DNA of 64,000 nt from Fibrobacteria bacterium. Its GTDB lineage: Bacteria; Fibrobacterota; Fibrobacteria; UBA11236. Below the pieces are notes generated by a model. The model was not told the origin of the DNA. It made no database searches and saw nothing but the letters and a program-made list of their open reading frames with translations. The translations under genes were made by a program, and so were the position numbers. Below are positions 1,315 through 62,172 of the stretch, in pieces. Numbering within the stretch: the first letter of the stretch is position 1; each line of letters starts with the position of its first letter. Where the stretch lies: positions 2,548 to 66,547 of the forward strand of contig JBJHDK010000004.1 of assembly GCA_050486505.1 (NCBI GenBank), read 5' to 3'.

Positions 1315-1349
1315 CGGCCGTAACGGCCGTACAAAAAGCGACCGTCGCT
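1315..1349 (-). terminator. Putative intrinsic terminator downstream of nuoN (end of the nuoJKLMN unit)
   Basis: Read on the minus strand: hairpin AGCGACGGTCGCT (1337-1349, overlapping the nuoN TAG stop) followed by a T-run (plus-strand A-run 1333-1337). A second hairpin CGGCCGT-A-ACGGCCG lies at 1315-1329. Confidence 0.4.
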
Positions 1350-2796
1350 ACGGCAACACGGGAAGACGCAGCATCACGCCCAGCGCCAAGGTCGCGACGG
1401 CGCAGAACGCCAGGACCGACACGGCTTCGGGATGCAGGGCGCGGGGCTCCGCCGAGGGGTGCGGGGCATCGGCAGGAGGGTTCACGAACCACATGGCCCG
1501 GACCATTCCGAAGTAGAAGAAGAACGAGATCAGGCTGAGCACCACCGAGACGAACAACACCGGAAGAAACCACGGCATCGGCTCGAAGCCGGGGGTGAAC
1601 GCCCCGGTGATCACCGCGAACTTGGCCGCGAACCCTGCCGTCAGGGGAACCCCCGCGAGCCCGAAAATCATCCAGGTCAGGAGCGCTGCCACCCACGGGT
1701 TGCGCCGTCCGAGGCCATCGAAGTCGCTGACGGAAGACAGGTCCGCGCCCTTCGTTCCCAGCGCCATGAACCCGGCAATCACGCCGAGCGTGGTCAGGGA
1801 GTACGCGACGAGGTAGAAGAGGAAGGCGCTCGCGGAATCGAGGAACAGCGCCAGCAGCACGAAGCCCCCGTTGCCGACGGAGGAGTAGGCGAGGATGCGC
1901 TTGGCATCCGTCTGCACGATGGTCTGGATGTTTCCGAAAAGTGCGGACGCCAGTGCGACGACCAGAACGACGGGCATCCAGACCTCGCTCAGGTACATGA
2001 ACGGGCCCCAGAGCAAGACGGCCACGGCGGCGAAGAGGGCCACCTTGGCCGGAACGGAGATGAAGGAGAGGGACGCGAGGTTGGTTCCCTGGTAAATATC
2101 CGAGATCCAGAAGTGGAACGGGGCCGCGGCGATCTTGAACATCAGCGCCGCCAGCACGAGCGCCAGCGCCATCTTGGCAAGGATCAACTCCGCGACCGCC
2201 CCCTCAAGCACGAAGCCGCCGATGGCATCGCGCATTCCGGCAAGGTGCAGTTCCCCGGTAACGCCGTACAGGAAGGCGATGCCCAGAAGCAGGAACACGC
2301 TGGCGAACGCGCCGAGGATCAAGTACTTCATCCCGGCTTCGTTGCCGCGCGTGTCACGGAAGTTGAAGCCTGCAAGAACATAGGAGGGAATCGAGACGAG
2401 CTCGAAGGCGATGAACAGGGTCGCGACATCGCCCGCCAAGGGAAGGTGGACGAGGCCGAATGCTTGCGCCAGGGCGACCATGCGGAAATCGATGGAACGC
2501 ACGCGAATTTTCTCGAGATACCCGTTCGCGAGGACAAGGGCGCCCAAGGCAAGGACGAGCGCGGAAACGGCCAGAACCTTGCCGACCACGGTCACCCGGA
2601 TGGCGCCGCCGAAGAACTCGTCACCCGGGTGCAGGTGCATGCCGGTGATCAGGGCCGTCAAGCCAACCGCCGCCAGTGAGATCCAGAGCGAAAGGCGGCG
2701 CGTGGCCGGGCTTCCCTCGGGACGCACGGACGCCAAGATCAGCAGCAGGCAGAATCCGGCGGCGAGTGGGAGTTGCGAATAGAGGTATGCGTTCAT
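1348..2796 (-). CDS. nuoN: NADH-quinone oxidoreductase subunit N
   Basis: 482-aa polytopic membrane protein. The sequence is typical of NuoN/ND2 antiporter-like subunits (…FHFWISDIYQGT…). It is the last gene of the nuoJKLMN block. Confidence 0.93.
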   Translation of the reverse strand: MNAYLYSQLPLAAGFCLLLILASVRPEGSPATRRLSLWISLAAVGLTALITGMHLHPGDEFFGGAIRVTVVGKVLAVSALVLALGALVLANGYLEKIRVRSIDFRMVALAQAFGLVHLPLAGDVATLFIAFELVSIPSYVLAGFNFRDTRGNEAGMKYLILGAFASVFLLLGIAFLYGVTGELHLAGMRDAIGGFVLEGAVAELILAKMALALVLAALMFKIAAAPFHFWISDIYQGTNLASLSFISVPAKVALFAAVAVLLWGPFMYLSEVWMPVVLVVALASALFGNIQTIVQTDAKRILAYSSVGNGGFVLLALFLDSASAFLFYLVAYSLTTLGVIAGFMALGTKGADLSSVSDFDGLGRRNPWVAALLTWMIFGLAGVPLTAGFAAKFAVITGAFTPGFEPMPWFLPVLFVSVVLSLISFFFYFGMVRAMWFVNPPADAPHPSAEPRALHPEAVSVLAFCAVATLALGVMLRLPVLP

Positions 2797-2820
2797 GGCG
2801 ATGCGTTCTTCCCGTGGCGG

Positions 2821-4347
2821 CTATCCGGGCCACCCCACGGAATGAATGAAGGACACGGCTTTCTCCACCGGCCCCAAAAGCAGCATGGGATAGATCCCGA
2901 GCACCACCCACAGGGCGGCCATACCGAGCGCGACCCCCGTCTCGGAACGATCGAGGTCGGGAGCGGCCTCCACCCCGGGCTGCCGGGTCCGTGCCTCTCC
3001 CAGAAACACCTGATGAAAGGCGCGCACCATGGCCGCGGCAGCGAGCACTGCGCCCAGTCCGGCGAAGAATGCAAACCACGGGGAGGCATTGAAGGCGGCG
3101 AAGAAAATCAGCACCTCGCCGGGGAAGTTGTTCAACCCGGGAAGGCTGGCCGAGGCGAAGGCCGCCAGCAACAGGAATGCGAACAGACGGCCTTGCGATG
3201 CGCGCAAGCCGGCCAGCAACCCGCGGTCGGGACTGGCGCCGTCGCGCAAGATGCGCGCGTCGAGCGCGAAGAGGAGCACCATGATCAGGGCGTGATTGAA
3301 TGCGAGCAGAATGGCGCCGGAGAGACCCGAGGTCGCGGCGTCACCCGCCGACACCGACACGAACACACCGAGCGCGATCAGCGAAAGATGGGACAGCGAT
3401 CCGTAGGCAAGCAGGTCGATGAAACGGTTCTGCGACAGCATCAGCACGCCCCCATAAACCGCGCCCGCCACGGCGAGGATTTGCAGGGGGGTCGCGAACC
3501 GCGTCAGCTCTTCCGTGAAGGCGGGGGCGAGGATGAGGATGAGGCCGAAGGCGCCCATTTTCGACATCGCCGCGGAGAGCAGGGCTCGGCATGCCGCTGG
3601 AGCGACGTTGTAGGTGTCGCGCAACCAGCCGTGGAAGCCGAAGAGCGGCAGCTTGACCGCGAAGCCGAGAAAGAAGCCGAGAAACACCCAGGCGCGTGTC
3701 GTGTCGCCAAGGCGCGAGACGGTGGCGGCAAGCCCCTGCAGTCCGGGATCGCGGAAACTCTCGACGCACACCGCGCCGATGGCGAAGAGCATGGGAAGGC
3801 TTCCCGCGAGCGTGAACAGGACGAAGCGCAACAACACGGGGTAGACGGCGTTGCCGCGCACGTCGGGGCGGCCGTGCAGGCCGATCCAGAAGTAAACGGC
3901 CAGCAGGGAGGTTTCCCAGAAGACGAAGAACAGGAGCAGGGAGTCGACGAGGAAGACCCCCGCGAGGCTGAACGCCAGCGTCCACGCGGCGGCGTAGTAG
4001 GACTTCCCGTAACGGCTCTCACGGTCGCGCAGGAAAGTGAACACGACGGGCAGGCAGAGCCCGAGCAGCAGCAGGAACGGGGCCGTGCGCCCGTCAAGGA
4101 ACAGGCGGGGCTGGAATTCGAATCCCGACGTGCCGAGCTGGAACGCCGCGCCGCCTGATACCAGCGGGGCCGAAGCCGACAACGCCGCGCTCCCGGCCAG
4201 CACGGCGAGACCGGCGTAGACCCACGCGAACGCCAGCGACATGCGGGCGAACTTTTCCGGGCGCGCGCCCGCTGGCTGGAAGGCGAAGAGCAACGCAGCC
4301 AGCAGCGGCGTGAACAGGGCGGTCGACAACAGCATCGCGGATGTCAT
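2821..4347 (-). CDS. nuoM: NADH-quinone oxidoreductase subunit M
   Basis: 508-aa antiporter-like subunit (…GFHGWLRDTY…, NuoM/ND4 family), immediately upstream of nuoN. Confidence 0.93.
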   Translation of the reverse strand: MTSAMLLSTALFTPLLAALLFAFQPAGARPEKFARMSLAFAWVYAGLAVLAGSAALSASAPLVSGGAAFQLGTSGFEFQPRLFLDGRTAPFLLLLGLCLPVVFTFLRDRESRYGKSYYAAAWTLAFSLAGVFLVDSLLLFFVFWETSLLAVYFWIGLHGRPDVRGNAVYPVLLRFVLFTLAGSLPMLFAIGAVCVESFRDPGLQGLAATVSRLGDTTRAWVFLGFFLGFAVKLPLFGFHGWLRDTYNVAPAACRALLSAAMSKMGAFGLILILAPAFTEELTRFATPLQILAVAGAVYGGVLMLSQNRFIDLLAYGSLSHLSLIALGVFVSVSAGDAATSGLSGAILLAFNHALIMVLLFALDARILRDGASPDRGLLAGLRASQGRLFAFLLLAAFASASLPGLNNFPGEVLIFFAAFNASPWFAFFAGLGAVLAAAAMVRAFHQVFLGEARTRQPGVEAAPDLDRSETGVALGMAALWVVLGIYPMLLLGPVEKAVSFIHSVGWPG

Positions 4348-6251
4348 TCCATCCCCCAGAGGATGACCCAGGCCGTGAAGGCGAGGAAGAGGAGGCCGAG
4401 CGCGGCGTAGTGGTGCGCGCGACCGCTTTGCAGGCGGCGCACCCAGACGGACAGCAACGTGCCGAAGCGGCCCGTGACCGTCAAGATGCCGGTGAATACG
4501 CTCTCGAACCCGATCCGGAAAAGAAGGGACAGGCGCTGCAGCGGACGCGTCAGCGCGTATTCATACAGCTCGTCGAAGTAGAAGGTGTGGGTGAGCGGCC
4601 CCTTGTTTCCCAGGCGAAGGTGAGACAAGGCCGACAGCACGCGCTCACGTCGCGCAGGCACCGAGAAGACCATGAAGCAGGCGACGGCCAGCGAAATGTT
4701 CACCGCCAGCACCGGCAGCACGTGACCCCAATGCATCGCTTCATGAACAGCCGCGCCCGCCGAAACCCAGGCGGTCAGCAGGGCCGTCGAGCTGAAGAGC
4801 GCGAAGCCCACCGCCGCAACGGAGAGCACGAGCAACACGAAGCGAATGGCCGGGCTGCTCTCGTGGGGAACCTCATGCCCGGCATGCTGGGCATCGGCAG
4901 GCGCGGACAGATATCCGAGCAGGCGGAAGAAGTACAGCGCGGCGAGCGACTCGACAGCGAGCACGATCCAGTACACCACCGCTCCCGAGATCTCCCAGCC
5001 GAAACCCGCGAGCGTCGCGCCGCGGATCGATTCGAGCACGGCTTCCTTGGTGAAGAAGGCGGCGGAGAAATACGGAATGAAGCCGGCACCGCCGATGCAA
5101 CCGATCCACAGGGCCGCGCGCGTCACGGGCATGGTCTTGAGCACGCCGCCCAGCTTGCGGGCATCCTGCTCATGATGCGCGGAGAAGATGACGCTGCCGG
5201 CCCCGAGGAAGAGCAGTGCCTTGAAGAAGGCGTGGCCGAAGAGGTGCAGCAGCGCGGCGTGGGTCGAACCGGCGGCCAGCGCCAGGAACATCATGCCCAG
5301 GTTCGCGACGGTCGAATAGGCGAGGATTTTCTTGATGTCGTACTGGCTCACCGCCATGAACGCACCCACCACCAAGGTCACCAGCGCGCACAGGCCGATG
5401 ATCATGCGAACCTCGGGGAAGGCGGCATACAGCCAATCGAGCTGCATGATCAGGTACACACCCGCCGTGACCATGGTGGCGGCGTGGATGAGCGCGCTCA
5501 CCGGCGTGGGACCGGCCATCGCGTCGGCGAGCCACACGTGGAACGGAGCCTGCGCCGACTTGGCGAAGGCGCCGCCCAGCACGAGCAAGGCTCCCAGCCC
5601 GGCCAGACCTTCGCGTCCCTCGAGCAGCGCGGGACCGTTCTCCGAAAGCGAGGAGAGGGACACCGTGCCGAACGCCGCATAGAGCGTGAACACGCCCAGA
5701 AGGAAGAACAGATCGCCGACGCGATTCACAAAGAAGGCGCGGTAGGCTGCCAGCGGCACGTTCTTCTCGCGCCAGTAATGGCCGACCAGCAGGTACGAGC
5801 ACAGGCCCACGCCTTCCCAGCCGAGGAAGATGAGCACGAGGTTGTCGGCCAGCACGAGCACCAGCATCGCCGACACGAAGAGGTTCAGGCTCGCGAAGAA
5901 ACGGGACTGTTCGACGTCGGGCCGCATGTACCCCACCGAGTACCCCGTGATCAAGGTGCCGAAGAAGGTCACCATCAGGGTCATCGTCAGGCCGGGCGAA
6001 TCGAGGCGCAAGTCCATGCCGGCACGGAAGCCTTCGGTCGCCAGCCATGCGCCCAGATCGAGCGCCACCGCATCGGGGGATCCGAGCACGCCCGACGACA
6101 AGAATCCGAGGGCGACCAGGAACGAAAGGCCAACCGAAGCCGTGGCGAGCACCCCGACCGCGTTGTAGGAAAGACGGCCGCCCCATAGGGCGATCACCAG
6201 CGACGACAGGGCCGGCAATCCGGGAAGCGCAAGCAGCAGCACCGGGTTCAT
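4344..6251 (-). CDS. nuoL: NADH-quinone oxidoreductase subunit L
   Basis: 635-aa protein with NuoL/ND5 motifs (HAATMVTAGVYL, ILAYSTV…). It overlaps nuoM by 4 nt. Confidence 0.93.
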   Translation of the reverse strand: MNPVLLLALPGLPALSSLVIALWGGRLSYNAVGVLATASVGLSFLVALGFLSSGVLGSPDAVALDLGAWLATEGFRAGMDLRLDSPGLTMTLMVTFFGTLITGYSVGYMRPDVEQSRFFASLNLFVSAMLVLVLADNLVLIFLGWEGVGLCSYLLVGHYWREKNVPLAAYRAFFVNRVGDLFFLLGVFTLYAAFGTVSLSSLSENGPALLEGREGLAGLGALLVLGGAFAKSAQAPFHVWLADAMAGPTPVSALIHAATMVTAGVYLIMQLDWLYAAFPEVRMIIGLCALVTLVVGAFMAVSQYDIKKILAYSTVANLGMMFLALAAGSTHAALLHLFGHAFFKALLFLGAGSVIFSAHHEQDARKLGGVLKTMPVTRAALWIGCIGGAGFIPYFSAAFFTKEAVLESIRGATLAGFGWEISGAVVYWIVLAVESLAALYFFRLLGYLSAPADAQHAGHEVPHESSPAIRFVLLVLSVAAVGFALFSSTALLTAWVSAGAAVHEAMHWGHVLPVLAVNISLAVACFMVFSVPARRERVLSALSHLRLGNKGPLTHTFYFDELYEYALTRPLQRLSLLFRIGFESVFTGILTVTGRFGTLLSVWVRRLQSGRAHHYAALGLLFLAFTAWVILWGME

Positions 6252-45817: not shown

Positions 45818-45848
45818 TGTAGGGGCAAATGATTATTTGCCCCTACAT
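45815..45848. repeat. Perfect 15-bp inverted repeat AATGTAGGGGCAAAT-gatt-ATTTGCCCCTACATT in the divergent methyltransferase/recF control region
   Basis: Read directly from the sequence. It is a member of a GTAGGGGC-type palindromic repeat family that recurs at 47350-47430 and 52945-52994. Confidence 0.7.
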
Positions 45849-45939
45849 TCCCTTACAGGGACCCACCACCACCCCGCCGTCCCGCGCCCCATCCACCGGA
45901 TCGCCCGCGCAGCGTACCCCCCAACTACCTTTCACCTCC

Positions 45940-47037
45940 GTGCACATCGACCGACTGACGCTTCACCATTTCCGCAATCTTCACGGCCTCGACGTGCGAC
46001 CCGCCCCGGGCCTTAACCTCATCGCCGGGCCCAACGGCCACGGCAAATCGAACCTCCTCGAAAGCGTCCATTACCTCGCGCTGGCCCACTCGGGCCGCAC
46101 CCGCAAGGACAAGGACCTGATCGCTTGGGACGCGCCCGCCGACGCGGGTTTCGTGGTCAGGGCGGAAGCCACGATCGGTGCGCGTGACCATGTGCAGTCG
46201 GTGGAATACACGGAACACGGAACGCGGGTAAAGGTGGAGGGGCTGGAGAGCAAGCGCCTCGGCGACCTGCTGGGGCATTTGCTGCTGGTGGCGTTTTCGC
46301 CCGAAGACCTGGATTTGCTCCGGGGGGGGCCGCAGGAGCGGCGCCGGTTCCTGGACGTGCTTCTGTGCCAACTCGACCCCGGCGCGCTGGACGTGCTGCG
46401 GCGCTACAGGCAGGCCCTGCGCCAGCGCAACGCAGTGCTCCGCTGGAACCCCGGCAAGGAGGAGGAGGCCCTCCTGGAGGCCTACGAGGCGACCCTCGCG
46501 GAGGCCGGCGCCGACATCGCCCGAAGGCGTCTCGACTGGGTCGAAAAACTGGCTCCGATGGCAGCCGGATTTTACCGGGAAATCAGCGGCAACGGAGAGC
46601 CCCTGACCCTGCGCGTGACCTCCGCCGCCGGAGCCTCCGAAGACCCGTCTTTATTGGCCGAAACGCTGCTCGCGAAGCTTCGTGAAAAGCGAGCCCAGGA
46701 CCGCGAAACAGGGCTCACTTCGGTCGGCCCGCACAGGGACGATTTGCTAGCTTTTCTGGCCGGAAAAACGGTGCGGGACTTCGCCTCCCAAGGGCAAAAA
46801 AGGTCCGTGGCGCTGGCCCTCAAGCTGGCCGCCGCGGGACTGCTCGAAGAGACGGCGGGCCTCCCTCCCATCCTGATTCTGGACGACGTGTTCGCCGAAC
46901 TCGACCCCGGACGCCGCGAGCGTTTCGGCGCCCTGATTGCCGGGCGCGGTCAGGCGTTCATCGCCACTCCCCGGCGCGAGGACCTCCCCTTCGCCGTGGA
47001 GTCCGTCGTGCAACTGGAGAAGGGAAAGGCGGCCTGA
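45940..47037 (+). CDS. recF: DNA replication and repair protein RecF
   Basis: Probable GTG start at 45940 (VHIDRLTLHHFRNLHGLDVRPAPGLNLIAGPNGHGKSNLLES…, containing the Walker A motif), with the signature region …GQKRSVALALKLA… and Walker B ILILDDVFAELD. Confidence 0.9.
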   Translation: MHIDRLTLHHFRNLHGLDVRPAPGLNLIAGPNGHGKSNLLESVHYLALAHSGRTRKDKDLIAWDAPADAGFVVRAEATIGARDHVQSVEYTEHGTRVKVEGLESKRLGDLLGHLLLVAFSPEDLDLLRGGPQERRRFLDVLLCQLDPGALDVLRRYRQALRQRNAVLRWNPGKEEEALLEAYEATLAEAGADIARRRLDWVEKLAPMAAGFYREISGNGEPLTLRVTSAAGASEDPSLLAETLLAKLREKRAQDRETGLTSVGPHRDDLLAFLAGKTVRDFASQGQKRSVALALKLAAAGLLEETAGLPPILILDDVFAELDPGRRERFGALIAGRGQAFIATPRREDLPFAVESVVQLEKGKAA

Positions 47038-47038
47038 C

Positions 47039-50251
<3,213 letters not shown>

Positions 50252-58091: not shown

Positions 58092-58218
58092 AGGGTTTCC
58101 CGAGAAAGCGCGGACTCACGAGCCGCATGCAGAACGGGCCGCAATGTTAGAAAGAAGCCGCTTCGATTTAAAGGCGAAATGTGCCGCAAGTGGCTGTTCG
58201 GCACTGATTTCCAGCCGC

Positions 58219-58452
58219 TCAGGGTGGCCCTCCGTGACGGTTCGCCCGATCAAGACCCTTGACCACGCGATAGACCGTATAGCCGGCCCCCAAAAGCCCC
58301 GCCGAGGTTCCTCCAAAGGCCCCCCATGGATGCCACCCCCAGGTGTTGTCGATCCACTTCCCCAGCAGCATTCCGCCGGCAATCCAGACTGCGAGCGTCC
58401 AACCCAGGGTCAGCAACAGGGCCAAATCTGGAGAAATCTTGGGGCCCGGCAT
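58219..58452 (-). CDS. AtpZ/AtpR-like putative F0F1-ATPase-associated small membrane protein
   Basis: Start at ATG 58452, giving a 77-aa protein MPGPKISPDLALLLTLGWTLAVWIAGGMLLGKWIDNTWGWHPWGAFGGT… with two TM helices that resembles the 'ATP synthase gene 1' family. The longer 127-aa ORF overlaps bactofilin and is rejected. Confidence 0.55.
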   Translation of the reverse strand: MPGPKISPDLALLLTLGWTLAVWIAGGMLLGKWIDNTWGWHPWGAFGGTSAGLLGAGYTVYRVVKGLDRANRHGGPP

Positions 58453-58474: not shown

Positions 58475-58816
58475 TCAGTCGCGGGCGGCGTCCATCGAGC
58501 AATTGCCCTGAAAAATCGCGCCCTCTTGCACCACAAGCTCACGCGCGTGCAGATCGCCCACCAGCACGGACTTGTCTTCGAGCACGAGCTTCTCCTGTAC
58601 ATGGATGTTTCCCGTCAAGCGTCCGGCCAGCGTCGCGGATCGGCTGGTGACGTCGCCTTCGACGGTTCCTGTCAGGCTGAGAACCAGATTTCCGCCCACG
58701 GAAATCGACCCCTTGACCGCGCCCTCGACGCGCAAGTCGTGTTCCACCGCCATGTCGCCGGTGATGCGGGTGCCTTCGCCGATGAAGGTCATGCTGGTTG
58801 CGGCGTTTTTCGACAT
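58475..58816 (-). CDS. Bactofilin family cytoskeletal protein (CcmA-like)
   Basis: 113-aa beta-helix repeat pattern (…ITGDMAVEHDLRVEGAVKGSISVGGNLVLSLTGTVEGDVTSRSATLAGRLTGNIHVQEKLVLEDKSVLVGDLHARELVVQEGA…), which is the DUF583/bactofilin signature. Confidence 0.8.
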   Translation of the reverse strand: MSKNAATSMTFIGEGTRITGDMAVEHDLRVEGAVKGSISVGGNLVLSLTGTVEGDVTSRSATLAGRLTGNIHVQEKLVLEDKSVLVGDLHARELVVQEGAIFQGNCSMDAARD

Positions 58817-58828
58817 GCTCGTTCCTCG

Positions 58829-59647
58829 TTATTCCAGATAGGTAAGTGGGTCGACCGGCTGCCCCCGGAAGATAATTTCGAAATGCAAATGGGGCCCAAG
58901 GCTGCGACCGGTACTCCCCACGATTCCGAGCGGGCTGCCTTTGCCGAGCTGGTCTCCGGGCTTCACGAATACCCGGGCAAGGTGTCCGTACAGCGTTTCC
59001 ACGCCGAAGTCGTGGTTGACGCGCACATACAGCCCCAGATCATTGTCCCAGCCCTGCTCCGTCACCATGCCGCGCGCCGCGCTCACCACGACGGCATTTT
59101 CCTCGGTCAGGATATCGATGCCGTCGTGCCGCGGCTCGGTGGAGCTTCCCGGCGAAAAGCGCTGGCTGATGATGCCCTTCACCGGCCAGATGTTCGGGTT
59201 TCTCTCACGGGCAAGTGAGGCATCGCGCTCCTCGAGTTGCCGGTCGATGGCGCGCAAATTCTCAAACAAGCCGGTCATGTCGCGACCTGTCCACGATGGA
59301 ACCGCGGCAACGCGCGCAGGATCGGGCGCGTCCGACAAGAACGCCTGCAAGATGTTCCTGATCGATCGCTCCCGCTCGGCCATCATGGCCAGCTCACGCT
59401 CGATCTGGAACATCTTGCGCTGTTGGGCCTGCAATTCCTGGTTGCGTTCGGCCATGTGGCTGGCCAACAGAACCTTCCCCTGGATCTGCGTCAGTTTCAC
59501 TGCGGCGAAACCAGCAGCGAACAGCGCCAGAACAAAGGCGTAAAAAAGGAACTCAAAGAACGGCCGTCGCAGCCGGAACGTCCAGGCCTCACCCGAGCCT
59601 TCGGGGAGAATCTGGATGGTCACGAAGCTTTTTTTGCGCGGGGGCAT
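58829..59647 (-). CDS. M23 family metallopeptidase (LytM/Csd1-like) with N-terminal TM anchor and coiled coil
   Basis: TM helix, a coiled-coil region, and a C-terminal M23 domain with the HxxxD…HLHFE motif (…LYGHLARVFVKPGDQLGKGSPLGIVGSTGRSLGPHLHFEIIFRGQPVDP…). Confidence 0.85.
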   Translation of the reverse strand: MPPRKKSFVTIQILPEGSGEAWTFRLRRPFFEFLFYAFVLALFAAGFAAVKLTQIQGKVLLASHMAERNQELQAQQRKMFQIERELAMMAERERSIRNILQAFLSDAPDPARVAAVPSWTGRDMTGLFENLRAIDRQLEERDASLARERNPNIWPVKGIISQRFSPGSSTEPRHDGIDILTEENAVVVSAARGMVTEQGWDNDLGLYVRVNHDFGVETLYGHLARVFVKPGDQLGKGSPLGIVGSTGRSLGPHLHFEIIFRGQPVDPLTYLE

Positions 59648-59748
59648 CGGGTCAAATTAGGAAGTCTTGGGATACGGAAAAAATCAGGGGGGACTCCCCG
59701 AGGACAACCCTCCGCCTCGGTCCTGACGAAGGCCGCACAGGAAAACCC

Positions 59749-60603
59749 TCAGGCCGTGCGTCCGCGCCGCAGGACGTCGACCATATTGTTTAATTCGTCA
59801 CTGTTCTTGTAATGAATTTCGAGCACTCCCTTGCGGGCGCCGCCACGCAGCGAAACCTTCATGCCCACAAGCGACTTCACCTCGTCGAGGAACGCGCGTG
59901 TATTCGCATCCAGAACCGCGCCCTTCCCGGCCTTCCGCGAAGGGCCAGCCTTTTCGGCATCGCGAACATTCAGGGAAGCTTCCAGGATCGCGCGTGCACG
60001 CTGGATCTGTTTCGCCCCCTGGTATTGTAGCAGCGCCCGGCCGTGTCCGGCCGTCAGCTTGCCCTCTCGCAACCAGGCCTGAACCTGCGGTTCCAGCCTC
60101 AGCAAGCGCAGGGTATTGGTCACCGCGGCGCGACTGCGCCCTACGCGCACGGCGATTTCCTCGTGGGTCATTCCGCAGGCTCCGGCCAGTTGCTCGTAGG
60201 CCTGCGCTTCTTCGACCGCATTGAGCTGCACCCGCTGGATGTTCTCAACAAGCGCGAGCTCGCGCATGTCGCGGTCGGACACCTGCTCGCGAACCAACGC
60301 GGGAATGTGCGTCCGGTTCAGGCTCTGGAATGCCCGAAAACGTCTCTCGCCGGAAACAATCTGATAGCCATCTCCGTGCTTGCGCAGGAAGATCGGCTGG
60401 ATCAGGCCGCTTTGTGCGATCGAGTCTGCAAGTTCCTGCAACTCCTCTTTCGAAAAATCCTGCCGGGGCTGGAAAGGGTTCGGTAAAATCAGCGAGAGTT
60501 CGATCTCATGCACCGCTGACCCCGTTTGAGGATCCTTGACCTCCGTCCCGAGGTTCGCGAAGATCGCGTCGAGCCCCTTGCCAAGCGCGCGCCGGGAGCT
60601 CAT
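59749..60603 (-). CDS. parB: Chromosome partitioning protein ParB (Spo0J)
   Basis: ParB box GLIQPIFLRKHGDGYQIVSGERRFRA and helix-turn-helix. 284 aa. Confidence 0.95.
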   Translation of the reverse strand: MSSRRALGKGLDAIFANLGTEVKDPQTGSAVHEIELSLILPNPFQPRQDFSKEELQELADSIAQSGLIQPIFLRKHGDGYQIVSGERRFRAFQSLNRTHIPALVREQVSDRDMRELALVENIQRVQLNAVEEAQAYEQLAGACGMTHEEIAVRVGRSRAAVTNTLRLLRLEPQVQAWLREGKLTAGHGRALLQYQGAKQIQRARAILEASLNVRDAEKAGPSRKAGKGAVLDANTRAFLDEVKSLVGMKVSLRGGARKGVLEIHYKNSDELNNMVDVLRRGRTA

Positions 60604-61373
60604 TTCTCCAGAATCTCCCTGGCGAGCTCCATGTAGCGCACCGCTCCCACCGAAACCACGTCGTAAAGAATCACGGGCTTGCCGAACGATGGCGCCTCCG
60701 AGAGCTTCACGCTGCGGGGAATAATGGTTTTGAAGACCTTCTCCGAGAACGTGTTCTGCACATCCTCCGCCACCTGCTTCGAGAGATTGAGGCGACTATC
60801 GTACATCGTCAGCAACGCGCCCTCGATCGCCAGCTTGGGATTCGTGCTCTGTTGCACCAGACGAATCGTGTTCAGCAGTTCTGCCAGTCCCTGCAATGCA
60901 TAGTACTCGCACTGGATGGGAATCAACACCGAATCCGCCGCAGTCAGAACATTCAGGGTGAGAATGTTGAGGCTCGGCGGCGAGTCGATCAAAATGAAAT
61001 CGTAGTCCGCACGCACCGCCTCCAGCACACGCGCCAGCCGTCGTTCGCGCTTGGACTCCTGCAGCAGCTTGACCTCGAGACCTGCAAGGGAGCGCGAGCA
61101 TGGAAAGACGTCGAGATACGCCATGCCCGTCTTTTTAATGAAACCTTTGACGCGATCCTTCGTGACCTGTTCTTCGGGCAGCAGGAGGGCGTCGTAAACA
61201 TCCTCCTCGAAATCTTCGTCGAAGCCCAGTCCCTGCGTCGAGTTCGCCTGCGGATCCATATCCACCAGCAAGACGCGCTTCTCCATGGCCGCCAAAGCAG
61301 CTGAAAGATTCACGCAGGTGGTGGTCTTTCCCACCCCGCCCTTCTGGTTGCATGCGGCGATGATCCTGCTCAC
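60600..61373 (-). CDS. parA: Chromosome partitioning ATPase ParA (Soj)
   Basis: Probable GTG start at or near 61373 (VSRIIAACNQKGGVGKTTT…, the deviant Walker A), overlapping the rsmG stop. My hand indexing was off by one in this stretch, so the coordinate is good to ±1 nt. The 374-aa ORF N-terminus is an artefact. Confidence 0.88.
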   Translation of the reverse strand: MSRIIAACNQKGGVGKTTTCVNLSAALAAMEKRVLLVDMDPQANSTQGLGFDEDFEEDVYDALLLPEEQVTKDRVKGFIKKTGMAYLDVFPCSRSLAGLEVKLLQESKRERRLARVLEAVRADYDFILIDSPPSLNILTLNVLTAADSVLIPIQCEYYALQGLAELLNTIRLVQQSTNPKLAIEGALLTMYDSRLNLSKQVAEDVQNTFSEKVFKTIIPRSVKLSEAPSFGKPVILYDVVSVGAVRYMELAREILEK

Positions 61374-61969
61374 GTTTCTCCCGCCTTCGAAGTCACGACG
61401 ACATAATACGTTCTGGCAATGCCCGGGAGCACATAGGGATGGTTTTCCACATCCTCGTAACCCGGCGGCACATCGTGGCACATCTCCGCCTTGAATGTCA
61501 TGAACTGGCCTTGCGGCTTCAGCATCTTGTAGGCCAGCTTTGCGTCGCGCGTGAACTCTCCGAAAGCACGGCAGCAGACCACGTCCATGTGGGAGAGGTA
61601 CACGCGTTCCACGCGCTCGGCAAGAATATGGAAGTTCGGGATGCGAACCTCGCGAATGATCTCCTGCATCAGGGCGCACTTTTTCTGATTGGGCTCGATG
61701 GCGAAGAAATCGATGTCGGGGCATGCGATCGCCAATGGCAACGAAGGAAGACCCGGGCCCGCACCCATGTCTGCAAGCTTGTTCACCTCGTTGAAGAACG
61801 GGATCAACTGCAGCGAGTCAACGATGTGGCGCTCCCAGATCAGCGCCTCATCCTGCTGGCTGACAAGGTTCAGGTTCCTGTTCCAGCGTTTGTAAATCCC
61901 TTCAAGCGTCCGGAGTTTCTTCTGGATTTTGGCATCAAGCGTGGAGGGATCAAACAGGAGACCATTCAT
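61370..61969 (-). CDS. rsmG: 16S rRNA (guanine527-N7)-methyltransferase RsmG (GidB)
   Basis: 199-aa GidB family protein (…LADMGAGPGLPSLPLAIA…) in the classic rsmG-parA-parB arrangement. Confidence 0.9.
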   Translation of the reverse strand: MNGLLFDPSTLDAKIQKKLRTLEGIYKRWNRNLNLVSQQDEALIWERHIVDSLQLIPFFNEVNKLADMGAGPGLPSLPLAIACPDIDFFAIEPNQKKCALMQEIIREVRIPNFHILAERVERVYLSHMDVVCCRAFGEFTRDAKLAYKMLKPQGQFMTFKAEMCHDVPPGYEDVENHPYVLPGIARTYYVVVTSKAGET

Positions 61970-62067
61970 AGTCCGCTAAATTTACCACAAGGTTTTGCGC
62001 TTTCAAGGAAAATGTAAGCGCGGGCCGCCACCCCCGACTCCTGATGGTCGCGCAGGATTCCCGGACA

Positions 62068-62083
62068 TGTTTCACGTGAAACA
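62068..62083. other. parS: parS centromere site 1 (TGTTTCACGTGAAACA)
   Basis: Exact match to the 16-bp parS consensus palindrome, embedded in ACATGTTTCACGTGAAACATGG. It lies in the rsmG-parAB upstream region. Confidence 0.8.
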
Positions 62084-62137
62084 TGGGGTTAATCCGGACG
62101 CCTCGATGACGTACTGTTTTGCTGGTACCCCGGTCGA

Positions 62138-62153
62138 TGTTTCACGTGAAACA
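62138..62153. other. parS: parS centromere site 2 (TGTTTCACGTGAAACA within a 28-bp perfect palindrome GGTCGATGTTTCACGTGAAACATCGACC)
   Basis: Second exact consensus parS, 70 bp from the first and flanked by extended dyad symmetry. Confidence 0.8.
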
Positions 62154-62172
62154 TCGACCGGAAGCGGGCAGG

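Follow-up and report, generated by a model that had tools for sequence, protein, structure and literature searches.

A bactofilin–M23 peptidase pair between the ParABS locus and the F1Fo ATP synthase operon of Fibrobacterota: a gene order that is probably inherited

The gene order described here lies in a 64,000-nucleotide (nt) stretch of DNA from a Fibrobacteria bacterium (assembly GCA_050486505.1, contig JBJHDK010000004.1, positions 2,548 to 66,547 of the forward strand). This stretch is referred to as the window, and coordinates are counted from its first letter. On the minus strand, the list of open reading frames (ORFs), the Pfam scan and the sequence itself place in succession lepA, two parS sites, rsmG, parA, parB, a gene for an M23 metallopeptidase, a bactofilin gene, atpZ, a small ORF in the atpI position and atpBEFHAGDC (Table 1). 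The first-pass annotation of the window had pointed to this run of rsmG-parA-parB, peptidase, bactofilin and ATP synthase genes on one strand, and every element of it was confirmed, including the distance of exactly 22 nt between the bactofilin stop and atpZ. Most junctions are tight. The GTG start of parA at position 61373 makes a 4-nt overlap with the rsmG stop, parA and parB meet in an ATGA overlap, and the peptidase and bactofilin genes are separated by 12 nt that contain GAGGAA. The encoded ParA has 257 amino acids (aa), compared with 254–258 aa in relatives.

This order is not confined to one genome. In related Fibrobacterota contigs (loci L001–L004, L088–L100 and L110), whose peptidases are 46–86% identical to that of the window, the succession rsmG-parA-parB-M23-bactofilin-atpZ-atpI position-atpB is kept in all cases as far as the contigs reach, and nine of them span the whole distance from parB to atpB. 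Upstream of rsmG these relatives carry different genes, among them lepA, trpF, an FKBP gene and an acyltransferase gene beside rnpA-yidC, with the block intact. Since the upstream genes differ while the order within the block is constant, the block is held together and its surroundings are not. Loci outside the lineage were characterized by tblastn, ORF and Pfam analysis, and their phylum labels are the names given in the sequence records. This cross-phylum sample is small; it comes from a genome scan that was dominated by the generic motif GPHLH[FY]EI and returned no Fibrobacterota. A Calditrichaeota metagenome-assembled genome (L022) carries parA-parB-M23-bactofilin-atpZ-atpI position-atpB-E-F..A, and the order is the same in Ca. 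Marinimicrobia UBA6931 (L062) as well as in L031, which is closely related to L062. It is retained in two further Calditrichota contigs (L114 and L116) with junctions that overlap or are shorter than 70 nt, and a Caldithrix contig (L010), which begins at the peptidase, continues with bactofilin and atpZ. Three contigs of Latescibacterota show FtsK-LolA-like-S8-HIT-M23-bactofilin-AtpI-AtpB, without parAB and without atpZ before atpI. In the seawater contig ERZ922729 k127_113587 (L115, 4373–12885), parA-parB-M23-(378 nt)-bactofilin is followed by a V/A-type ATPase operon, which encodes DUF2764, an A subunit with an ATP-synt_ab_Xtn domain, and the B and D subunits. The parA, parB, peptidase and bactofilin of this single contig are closest to those of Calditrichota, and its V/A-type operon looks like an in-situ displacement of the F-type atp genes. 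Finally, M23–bactofilin pairs without parAB or atp neighbors are found in Caldisericota, Firmicutes, Bacteroidota and Burkholderiales.

Judged from these contigs, the order of the block is standard for Fibrobacterota, Calditrichota and Marinimicrobia. The first-pass annotation had called the linkage a departure from the standard arrangement, which holds in comparison with the model organisms and fails for these three phyla. Such a distribution fits an old, vertically inherited gene order within the Fibrobacteres–Chlorobi–Bacteroidetes (FCB) group. In a rough neighbor-joining tree, which has no support values and is given low weight, the atp-linked peptidases group by phylum and lie near each other. 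A description of the cross-phylum block was not found in the open-access literature, and it is presented here as a modest comparative observation that is apparently undescribed. The adjacency itself is real and far beyond chance, recurring in every related contig of sufficient length as well as in other phyla. A chance or recent juxtaposition in this genome, for example if the pair had been inserted as mobile DNA between housekeeping operons, would be compatible with the 101-nt spacer after parB and with nothing else that was observed. It is refuted by the identical order in relatives with 46–86% peptidase identity and in the other phyla. The guanine–cytosine (GC) content of the block also matches that of its flanks, in a window of about 63% GC whose ORF list holds no repeats or mobile-element genes, and the probability left to such an event is practically negligible.

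Table 1. Features of the lepA–atpC region, listed in the direction of the minus-strand genes; coordinates are those of the window.
Feature	Position or length	Strand	Evidence and remarks
lepA	63978-62173	-	ORF list/Pfam
lepA-rsmG spacer	203 nt		holds both parS sites
parS site 1	62138-62153		TGTTTCACGTGAAACA; inside a 32-bp perfect palindrome (62130-62161) in the lepA-rsmG spacer
parS site 2	62068-62083 (element 62067-62084)		TGTTTCACGTGAAACA; 70 nt from site 1
Sigma70-like promoter candidate before rsmG	62006-61979	-	TTGAAA, 16 nt, TG-TAAATT; 10 nt ahead of rsmG; consensus match only
rsmG (16S rRNA m7G methyltransferase)	61969-61370	-	PF02527, 3.8e-38
parA (Walker-type partition ATPase, KGGVGKTT)	61373-60600	-	PF13614/PF01656
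parB	60603-59749	-	ParB_N + HTH_ParB + ParB_C; TIGR00180, 173 bits (cut-off 58)
parB-M23 spacer	59748-59648	-	101 nt
M23 metallopeptidase, 272 aa	59647-58829	-	PF01551, 1.7e-27
Bactofilin, 113 aa	58816-58475	-	PF04519, 8.6e-27
atpZ (small protein with two transmembrane helices)	58452-58219	-	PF09527
Sigma70-like promoter candidate, atpZ-atpI spacer	58172-58144	-	TTTAAA 58172-58167, 17 nt, TAACAT 58149-58144, then CGGCCCGTTC
Small membrane ORF, atpI position	58091-57720	-	no family match; stop overlaps the atpB start
F1Fo structural genes, whole run	57723-51243	-	ORF list, Pfam
atpB	57723-56872	-	
atpE	56849-56616	-	
atpF	56583-56005	-	
atpH	56003-55458	-	
atpA	55440-53911	-	
atpG	53897-52998	-	
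atpD	52915-51494	-	
atpC	51491-51243	-	

The named relatives of the peptidase come from metagenome-assembled genomes of Fibrobacteres/Fibrobacteria, which makes an uncultured member of Fibrobacterota the most likely source of the window. The N-terminus of the protein is basic and precedes a hydrophobic stretch (residues 29–52), a long helix and a C-terminal M23 domain. Its AlphaFold model, built with 9 homologues and with a predicted local distance difference test (pLDDT) score of 81, contains a cytoplasmic tail (residues 1–27) with a β-hairpin formed by strands 8–13 and 22–27, a continuous helix 28–105 that comprises the transmembrane (TM) segment and a coiled coil, a second helix 122–148 and the M23 sandwich at 159–265. 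According to this model, the peptidase is a bitopic protein with its N-terminus inside, a short cytoplasmic tail, one TM helix and a periplasmic coiled coil. The modeled M23 fold superposes on the structures of ShyA, the EnvC LytM domain, Csd1/Csd2 and DipM, and the best match by sequence in the PDB is chain A of the Helicobacter pylori Csd1-Csd2 entry 5J1L (2e-21). The proposal that the gene encodes a Csd1-like coiled-coil peptidase is thus borne out by both the match to this entry and the model. None of the NCBIfam equivalog cut-offs for EnvC, MepM, ShyA, DipM and Pgp3 was reached by the peptidase. The residues H174 and D178 (HxxxD), H212, and H253 and H255 (HxH) do not vary among 9 divergent homologues, with identities as low as about 30%. 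Because these putative zinc-binding and catalytic residues are invariant, the peptidase should be an active enzyme, unlike EnvC, NlpD and Csd2. Outside the catalytic domain, the tail and TM segment are the most conserved part of the protein, with 15 invariant positions in residues 5–36 as compared to 1 in residues 100–150.

The bactofilin is nearly a bare PF04519 core, which occupies residues 10–106 of 113 and leaves a C-terminal tail of 7 aa. Its nearest solved relatives are the bactofilins of Thermus thermophilus (6RIA, 1.3e-13) and Caulobacter crescentus (2N3D, 5e-9). The N-terminus (58816–58792) reads MSKNAATS, and the form MSKNxxxS is found throughout the lineage (L001–L004, L088–L099). 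The pairing with the peptidase, also claimed in the first-pass annotation, is firm in the window, and the gene that follows each inspected M23 homologue, at identities as low as about 31%, encodes a bactofilin.

An example of such a pair is the BacA–LmdC system of Hyphomonas neptunium and Rhodospirillum rubrum. Pöhl et al. (2024, PMC10945521) describe LmdC as a bitopic DD-endopeptidase whose N-terminal tail binds BacA, and catalogue adjacent bactofilin and M23 genes in 226 species, Fibrobacter succinogenes S85 included. The window pair shares with it the adjacency of the two genes, as well as the cytoplasmic tail, TM helix, periplasmic coiled coil and C-terminal M23 domain with all zinc ligands. 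It differs in that it is embedded between parAB and atp, in the minimal size and non-consensus N-terminus of its bactofilin, and in the length of the peptidase, which is only about 270 aa. The second comparable system is the helical-shape complex of CcmA and Csd1 (with Csd2) in H. pylori, in which the bactofilin gene likewise adjoins an M23 gene and whose entry 5J1L is the best match by sequence among solved structures. In contrast, the window holds a single M23 gene with no catalytically dead Csd2 paralogue, and no Csd5, Csd7 or MurF partners are visible near the pair. Taking gene order and protein layout together, the pair is a standard module of the LmdC/BacA (Csd1/CcmA) type, and thereby a new example of a catalogued kind.

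The reading favored here, with a probability of about 0.7, is that a ParABS locus is followed by a wall-shaping pair of the LmdC/BacA type and then by the F1Fo operon, in an order that is inherited and does not reflect fused functions. By analogy with the described systems, the bactofilin would polymerize on the cytoplasmic face of the inner membrane and bind the short conserved N-terminal tail of the bitopic peptidase. The periplasmic DD-endopeptidase would thereby be placed at defined zones of the envelope, where local cleavage of peptidoglycan cross-links could steer wall growth and cell shape. For the predicted binding of bactofilin and DD-endopeptidase activity, both known from LmdC, the support is indirect and comes from how strongly the tail is conserved.

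The upstream neighbor of the pair carries the features of a segregation system. Two perfect parS matches are observed in the window, where 0.02 are expected from shuffled sequences, and they sit 100–185 nt upstream of rsmG. Perfect parS sites are present upstream of rsmG in relatives too (two sites in L098, and L004). ParB carries the GERRFRA motif, a helix-turn-helix (HTH) domain and a C-terminal dimerization domain. On the grounds of the perfect parS pair, GERRFRA in ParB and KGGVGKTT in ParA, rsmG-parA-parB with its two parS sites is identified as a canonical chromosomal ParABS locus. Both parS sites together with their flanks (62058–62163) also make a 27-nt imperfect inverted repeat. With regard to the replication origin, recF and gyrB (45829–49388) lie about 10–15 kb from parAB, with amino-acid biosynthesis enzymes and a methyltransferase encoded upstream of them. 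Neither dnaA nor dnaN was found beside recF-gyrB in the window, and the GC skew of the window is uninformative as to the position of the origin.

The alternative, hinted at in the first-pass annotation, is a single module for segregation and wall remodeling. The bactofilin, together with the peptidase, would then be functionally integrated with ParABS, serving to anchor ParB-parS or ParA or to set their position. Such a link would account for the position of the pair directly after parB in three phyla, with junctions that often overlap or are shorter than 30 nt, and for a Firmicutes contig (L059) in which the pair lies about 1.5 kb after parAB. The only characterized precedent is found in Myxococcus xanthus, where parA, parB and bacM are co-transcribed in the operon parA-parB-bacM-MXAN_7474 (Koch 2011; Iniesta 2014, PMC3899335; PMC5703909) and bactofilin follows immediately downstream of parAB. 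However, BacM has a role in cell shape and, like MXAN_7474, is dispensable for segregation (PMC3899335; PMC5703909). It is the only bactofilin known to be transcribed together with parAB. Moreover, for that operon neither an M23 gene between parB and bacM nor a downstream atp operon is reported. A functional link of bactofilins and ParABS within one organism is proven for the BacNOP-PadC system of M. xanthus, by which ParABS is organized (Lin et al. 2017, PMC5703909). This system, in contrast to the window pair, is encoded away from parAB and needs the ParB-domain adaptor PadC and the long-tailed BacP. None of these features is found in the window: the neighbors of the bactofilin are the M23 peptidase and atpZ, with no PadC-like or other ParB-domain adaptor beside it, and the bactofilin has no extended tail for client binding. 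In addition, the pair stands beside atp with no parAB in Latescibacterota, and alone in many lineages. Because BacM is dispensable, the features of PadC and long-tailed BacP are absent and the Latescibacterota pair lacks parAB, a direct ParABS link is rated as unlikely.

Transcription of the block was approached by calling promoters from consensus and conservation. A sigma70-like candidate precedes rsmG (Table 1). In all Fibrobacterota loci, atpZ is separated from the atpI position by a spacer of 140–238 nt. In the window its length is 127 nt if the ORF starts at TTG 58091 and 154 nt if it starts at ATG 58064. The spacer contains a -35-like box, CTTTAAAT or TTGAAT, followed after 16–17 nt by TAnnnT within TTnCTAnnnTT and then by CGGCCCGTTC. 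The TTnCTAnnnTT core does not vary among 9 relatives, with the -35-like box at a fixed distance, and besides the window the element is present in L001, L003, L088, L091, L094 and L096–L098. The copy in the window has 8 of 12 consensus matches, under the scan threshold of 9, and hence was missed by the promoter scan. Because this long spacer holds a conserved -35/-10 pair, the structural atp genes of Fibrobacterota probably have their own promoter, in addition to any transcription that reaches them from upstream.

The same spacer sets atpZ apart from the other atp genes, so that in Fibrobacterota atpZ travels with the bactofilin gene. We infer that the M23-bactofilin-atpZ genes belong to the upstream unit, with rsmG-parA-parB reading through into them, and this unit would be driven from the site before rsmG and possibly also from a start near the M23 ATG. 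In many relatives the junctions are short (parB-M23 24–68 nt, M23-bactofilin 2–23 nt, bactofilin-atpZ -14 to 29 nt), while in others they are variable. From such tight spacing, co-transcription of the pair with parAB is plausible. The further suggestion of the first-pass annotation, co-expression of the pair with F1Fo, is likely only in part, being weakened for the structural genes by the conserved sigma70-like pair. The annotation had named separate promoters between the units as evidence against its proposal, and one such candidate is found, in the spacer before the structural atp genes. In Calditrichota and Marinimicrobia no such atpZ-atpI spacer exists, and for this reason the block is likely to be one long operon there.

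Some further elements were noted around these junctions. In the window and in its two closest relatives, L088 and L089, the motif C(G/C)TAATTT (59670–59654) stops 6 nt short of the M23 ATG, with no Shine-Dalgarno sequence visible, and may be the -10 box of a nearly leaderless M23 transcript. This promoter reading was not adopted, since a conserved -35 element is lacking and L100 has the motif at a shifted position. The Rfam scan returned nothing at gathering thresholds. A sub-threshold match to hammerhead II at 58172–58220 on the plus strand, opposite to the genes (23.5 bits against a gathering threshold of 37, E = 0.17), is most likely due to chance.

The downstream neighbor is a complete F1Fo operon with all genes in one direction and the small accessory genes, atpZ and the ORF in the atpI position, ahead. 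This latter ORF is conserved in relatives as a small membrane ORF; it matches neither PF03899 nor any other Pfam or NCBIfam model and has no similarity to an AtpI from Latescibacterota. It could be argued that the meaningful adjacency is the one with the ATP synthase, to which the pair or atpZ would be coupled regulatorily or physically, for example by shared growth-rate control or by AtpZ acting as the membrane partner of a bactofilin that has no canonical targeting sequence. The M23-bactofilin pair is indeed found directly before the ATP synthase operon in four phyla, the V/A-type operon fills the same slot in L115, in Fibrobacterota the promoter-bearing spacer leaves atpZ upstream, on the side of the bactofilin, and the bactofilin N-terminus departs from the membrane-targeting consensus. 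As seen across the sampled lineages, a recurrent ATP synthase neighbor, including the V-type case, is a more unusual fact than the parAB link, and it could indicate selection for a shared expression context. Nevertheless, inheritance alone can preserve the order of long housekeeping operons, the V/A-type replacement is seen in one contig only, Latescibacterota have no atpZ between bactofilin and atpI, and no atp genes adjoin the pairs of Bacteroidota, Firmicutes, Caldisericota and Proteobacteria. No known biology connects bactofilins with the ATP synthase, and nothing relevant to a bactofilin–ATP synthase link or to Fibrobacter bactofilins was found in the open-access literature. Coupling to the ATP synthase is therefore judged to be quite improbable.

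Several points weigh against the favored reading. First, the published membrane-targeting consensus of bactofilins is MFSKKKK (PMC12448750). The MSKNAATS of the window is without Phe2 and the poly-Lys stretch of this consensus, having one Lys only. A targeting sequence resembling this consensus is common, though not universal, among bactofilins. Second, the promoter and read-through calls rest on consensus and spacing. Third, a hairpin with a T-run follows parB (59701–59684), yet it is not better than chance. As a terminator this candidate was rejected, with a fold z of 0.34 against shuffles and 10 terminator-like sites in the region where 9.6 are expected. Fourth, the cross-phylum order and the V/A-type operon in the slot of L115 could mean that the adjacency is selected and not merely inherited. 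In its full form, this last view takes the block as a selected unit of Fibrobacterota, Calditrichota, Marinimicrobia and, in part, Latescibacterota, in which a regulatory or physical link would tie bactofilin-guided wall hydrolysis to the segregation of the origin, to the ATP synthase, or to both. The block appears to be kept despite the swap from F-type to V/A-type, and AtpZ as the membrane partner of the bactofilin would be a possible link. This reading as a whole is considered unlikely.

Of the general mechanisms for how bactofilins act, the bactofilin–M23 module has the best support, but to our knowledge work on it is confined to Proteobacteria and spirochaetes. If the favored reading holds, the module would belong to the ancient housekeeping equipment of several FCB-group phyla, fixed in place between parAB and the genes of the ATP synthase. 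An order that is only inherited would serve as a useful synteny marker and as a caution against reading function from adjacency, while a selected order, if true, would point to an undescribed coordination of wall remodeling with the cell cycle or the energy supply.

Among the ATP synthase genes, two peculiarities were observed. The AtpC of the window has 82 aa, all of them covered by PF02823; it consists of the epsilon β-sandwich alone and lacks the helical inhibitory domain at the C-terminus. In atp operons of Latescibacterota (L113, 9738–10736, and the P0118 contig), a 239-aa protein with ATP-synt_C matches is encoded ahead of a normal c subunit of 84–85 aa. Elsewhere in the window, three consecutive genes of the NuoL/M/N type (Mrp antiporter-like, PF00361) lie on the minus strand at 1348–6251 and coincide with an AT skew at 2–8 kb that is unusually strong (up to 0.35).

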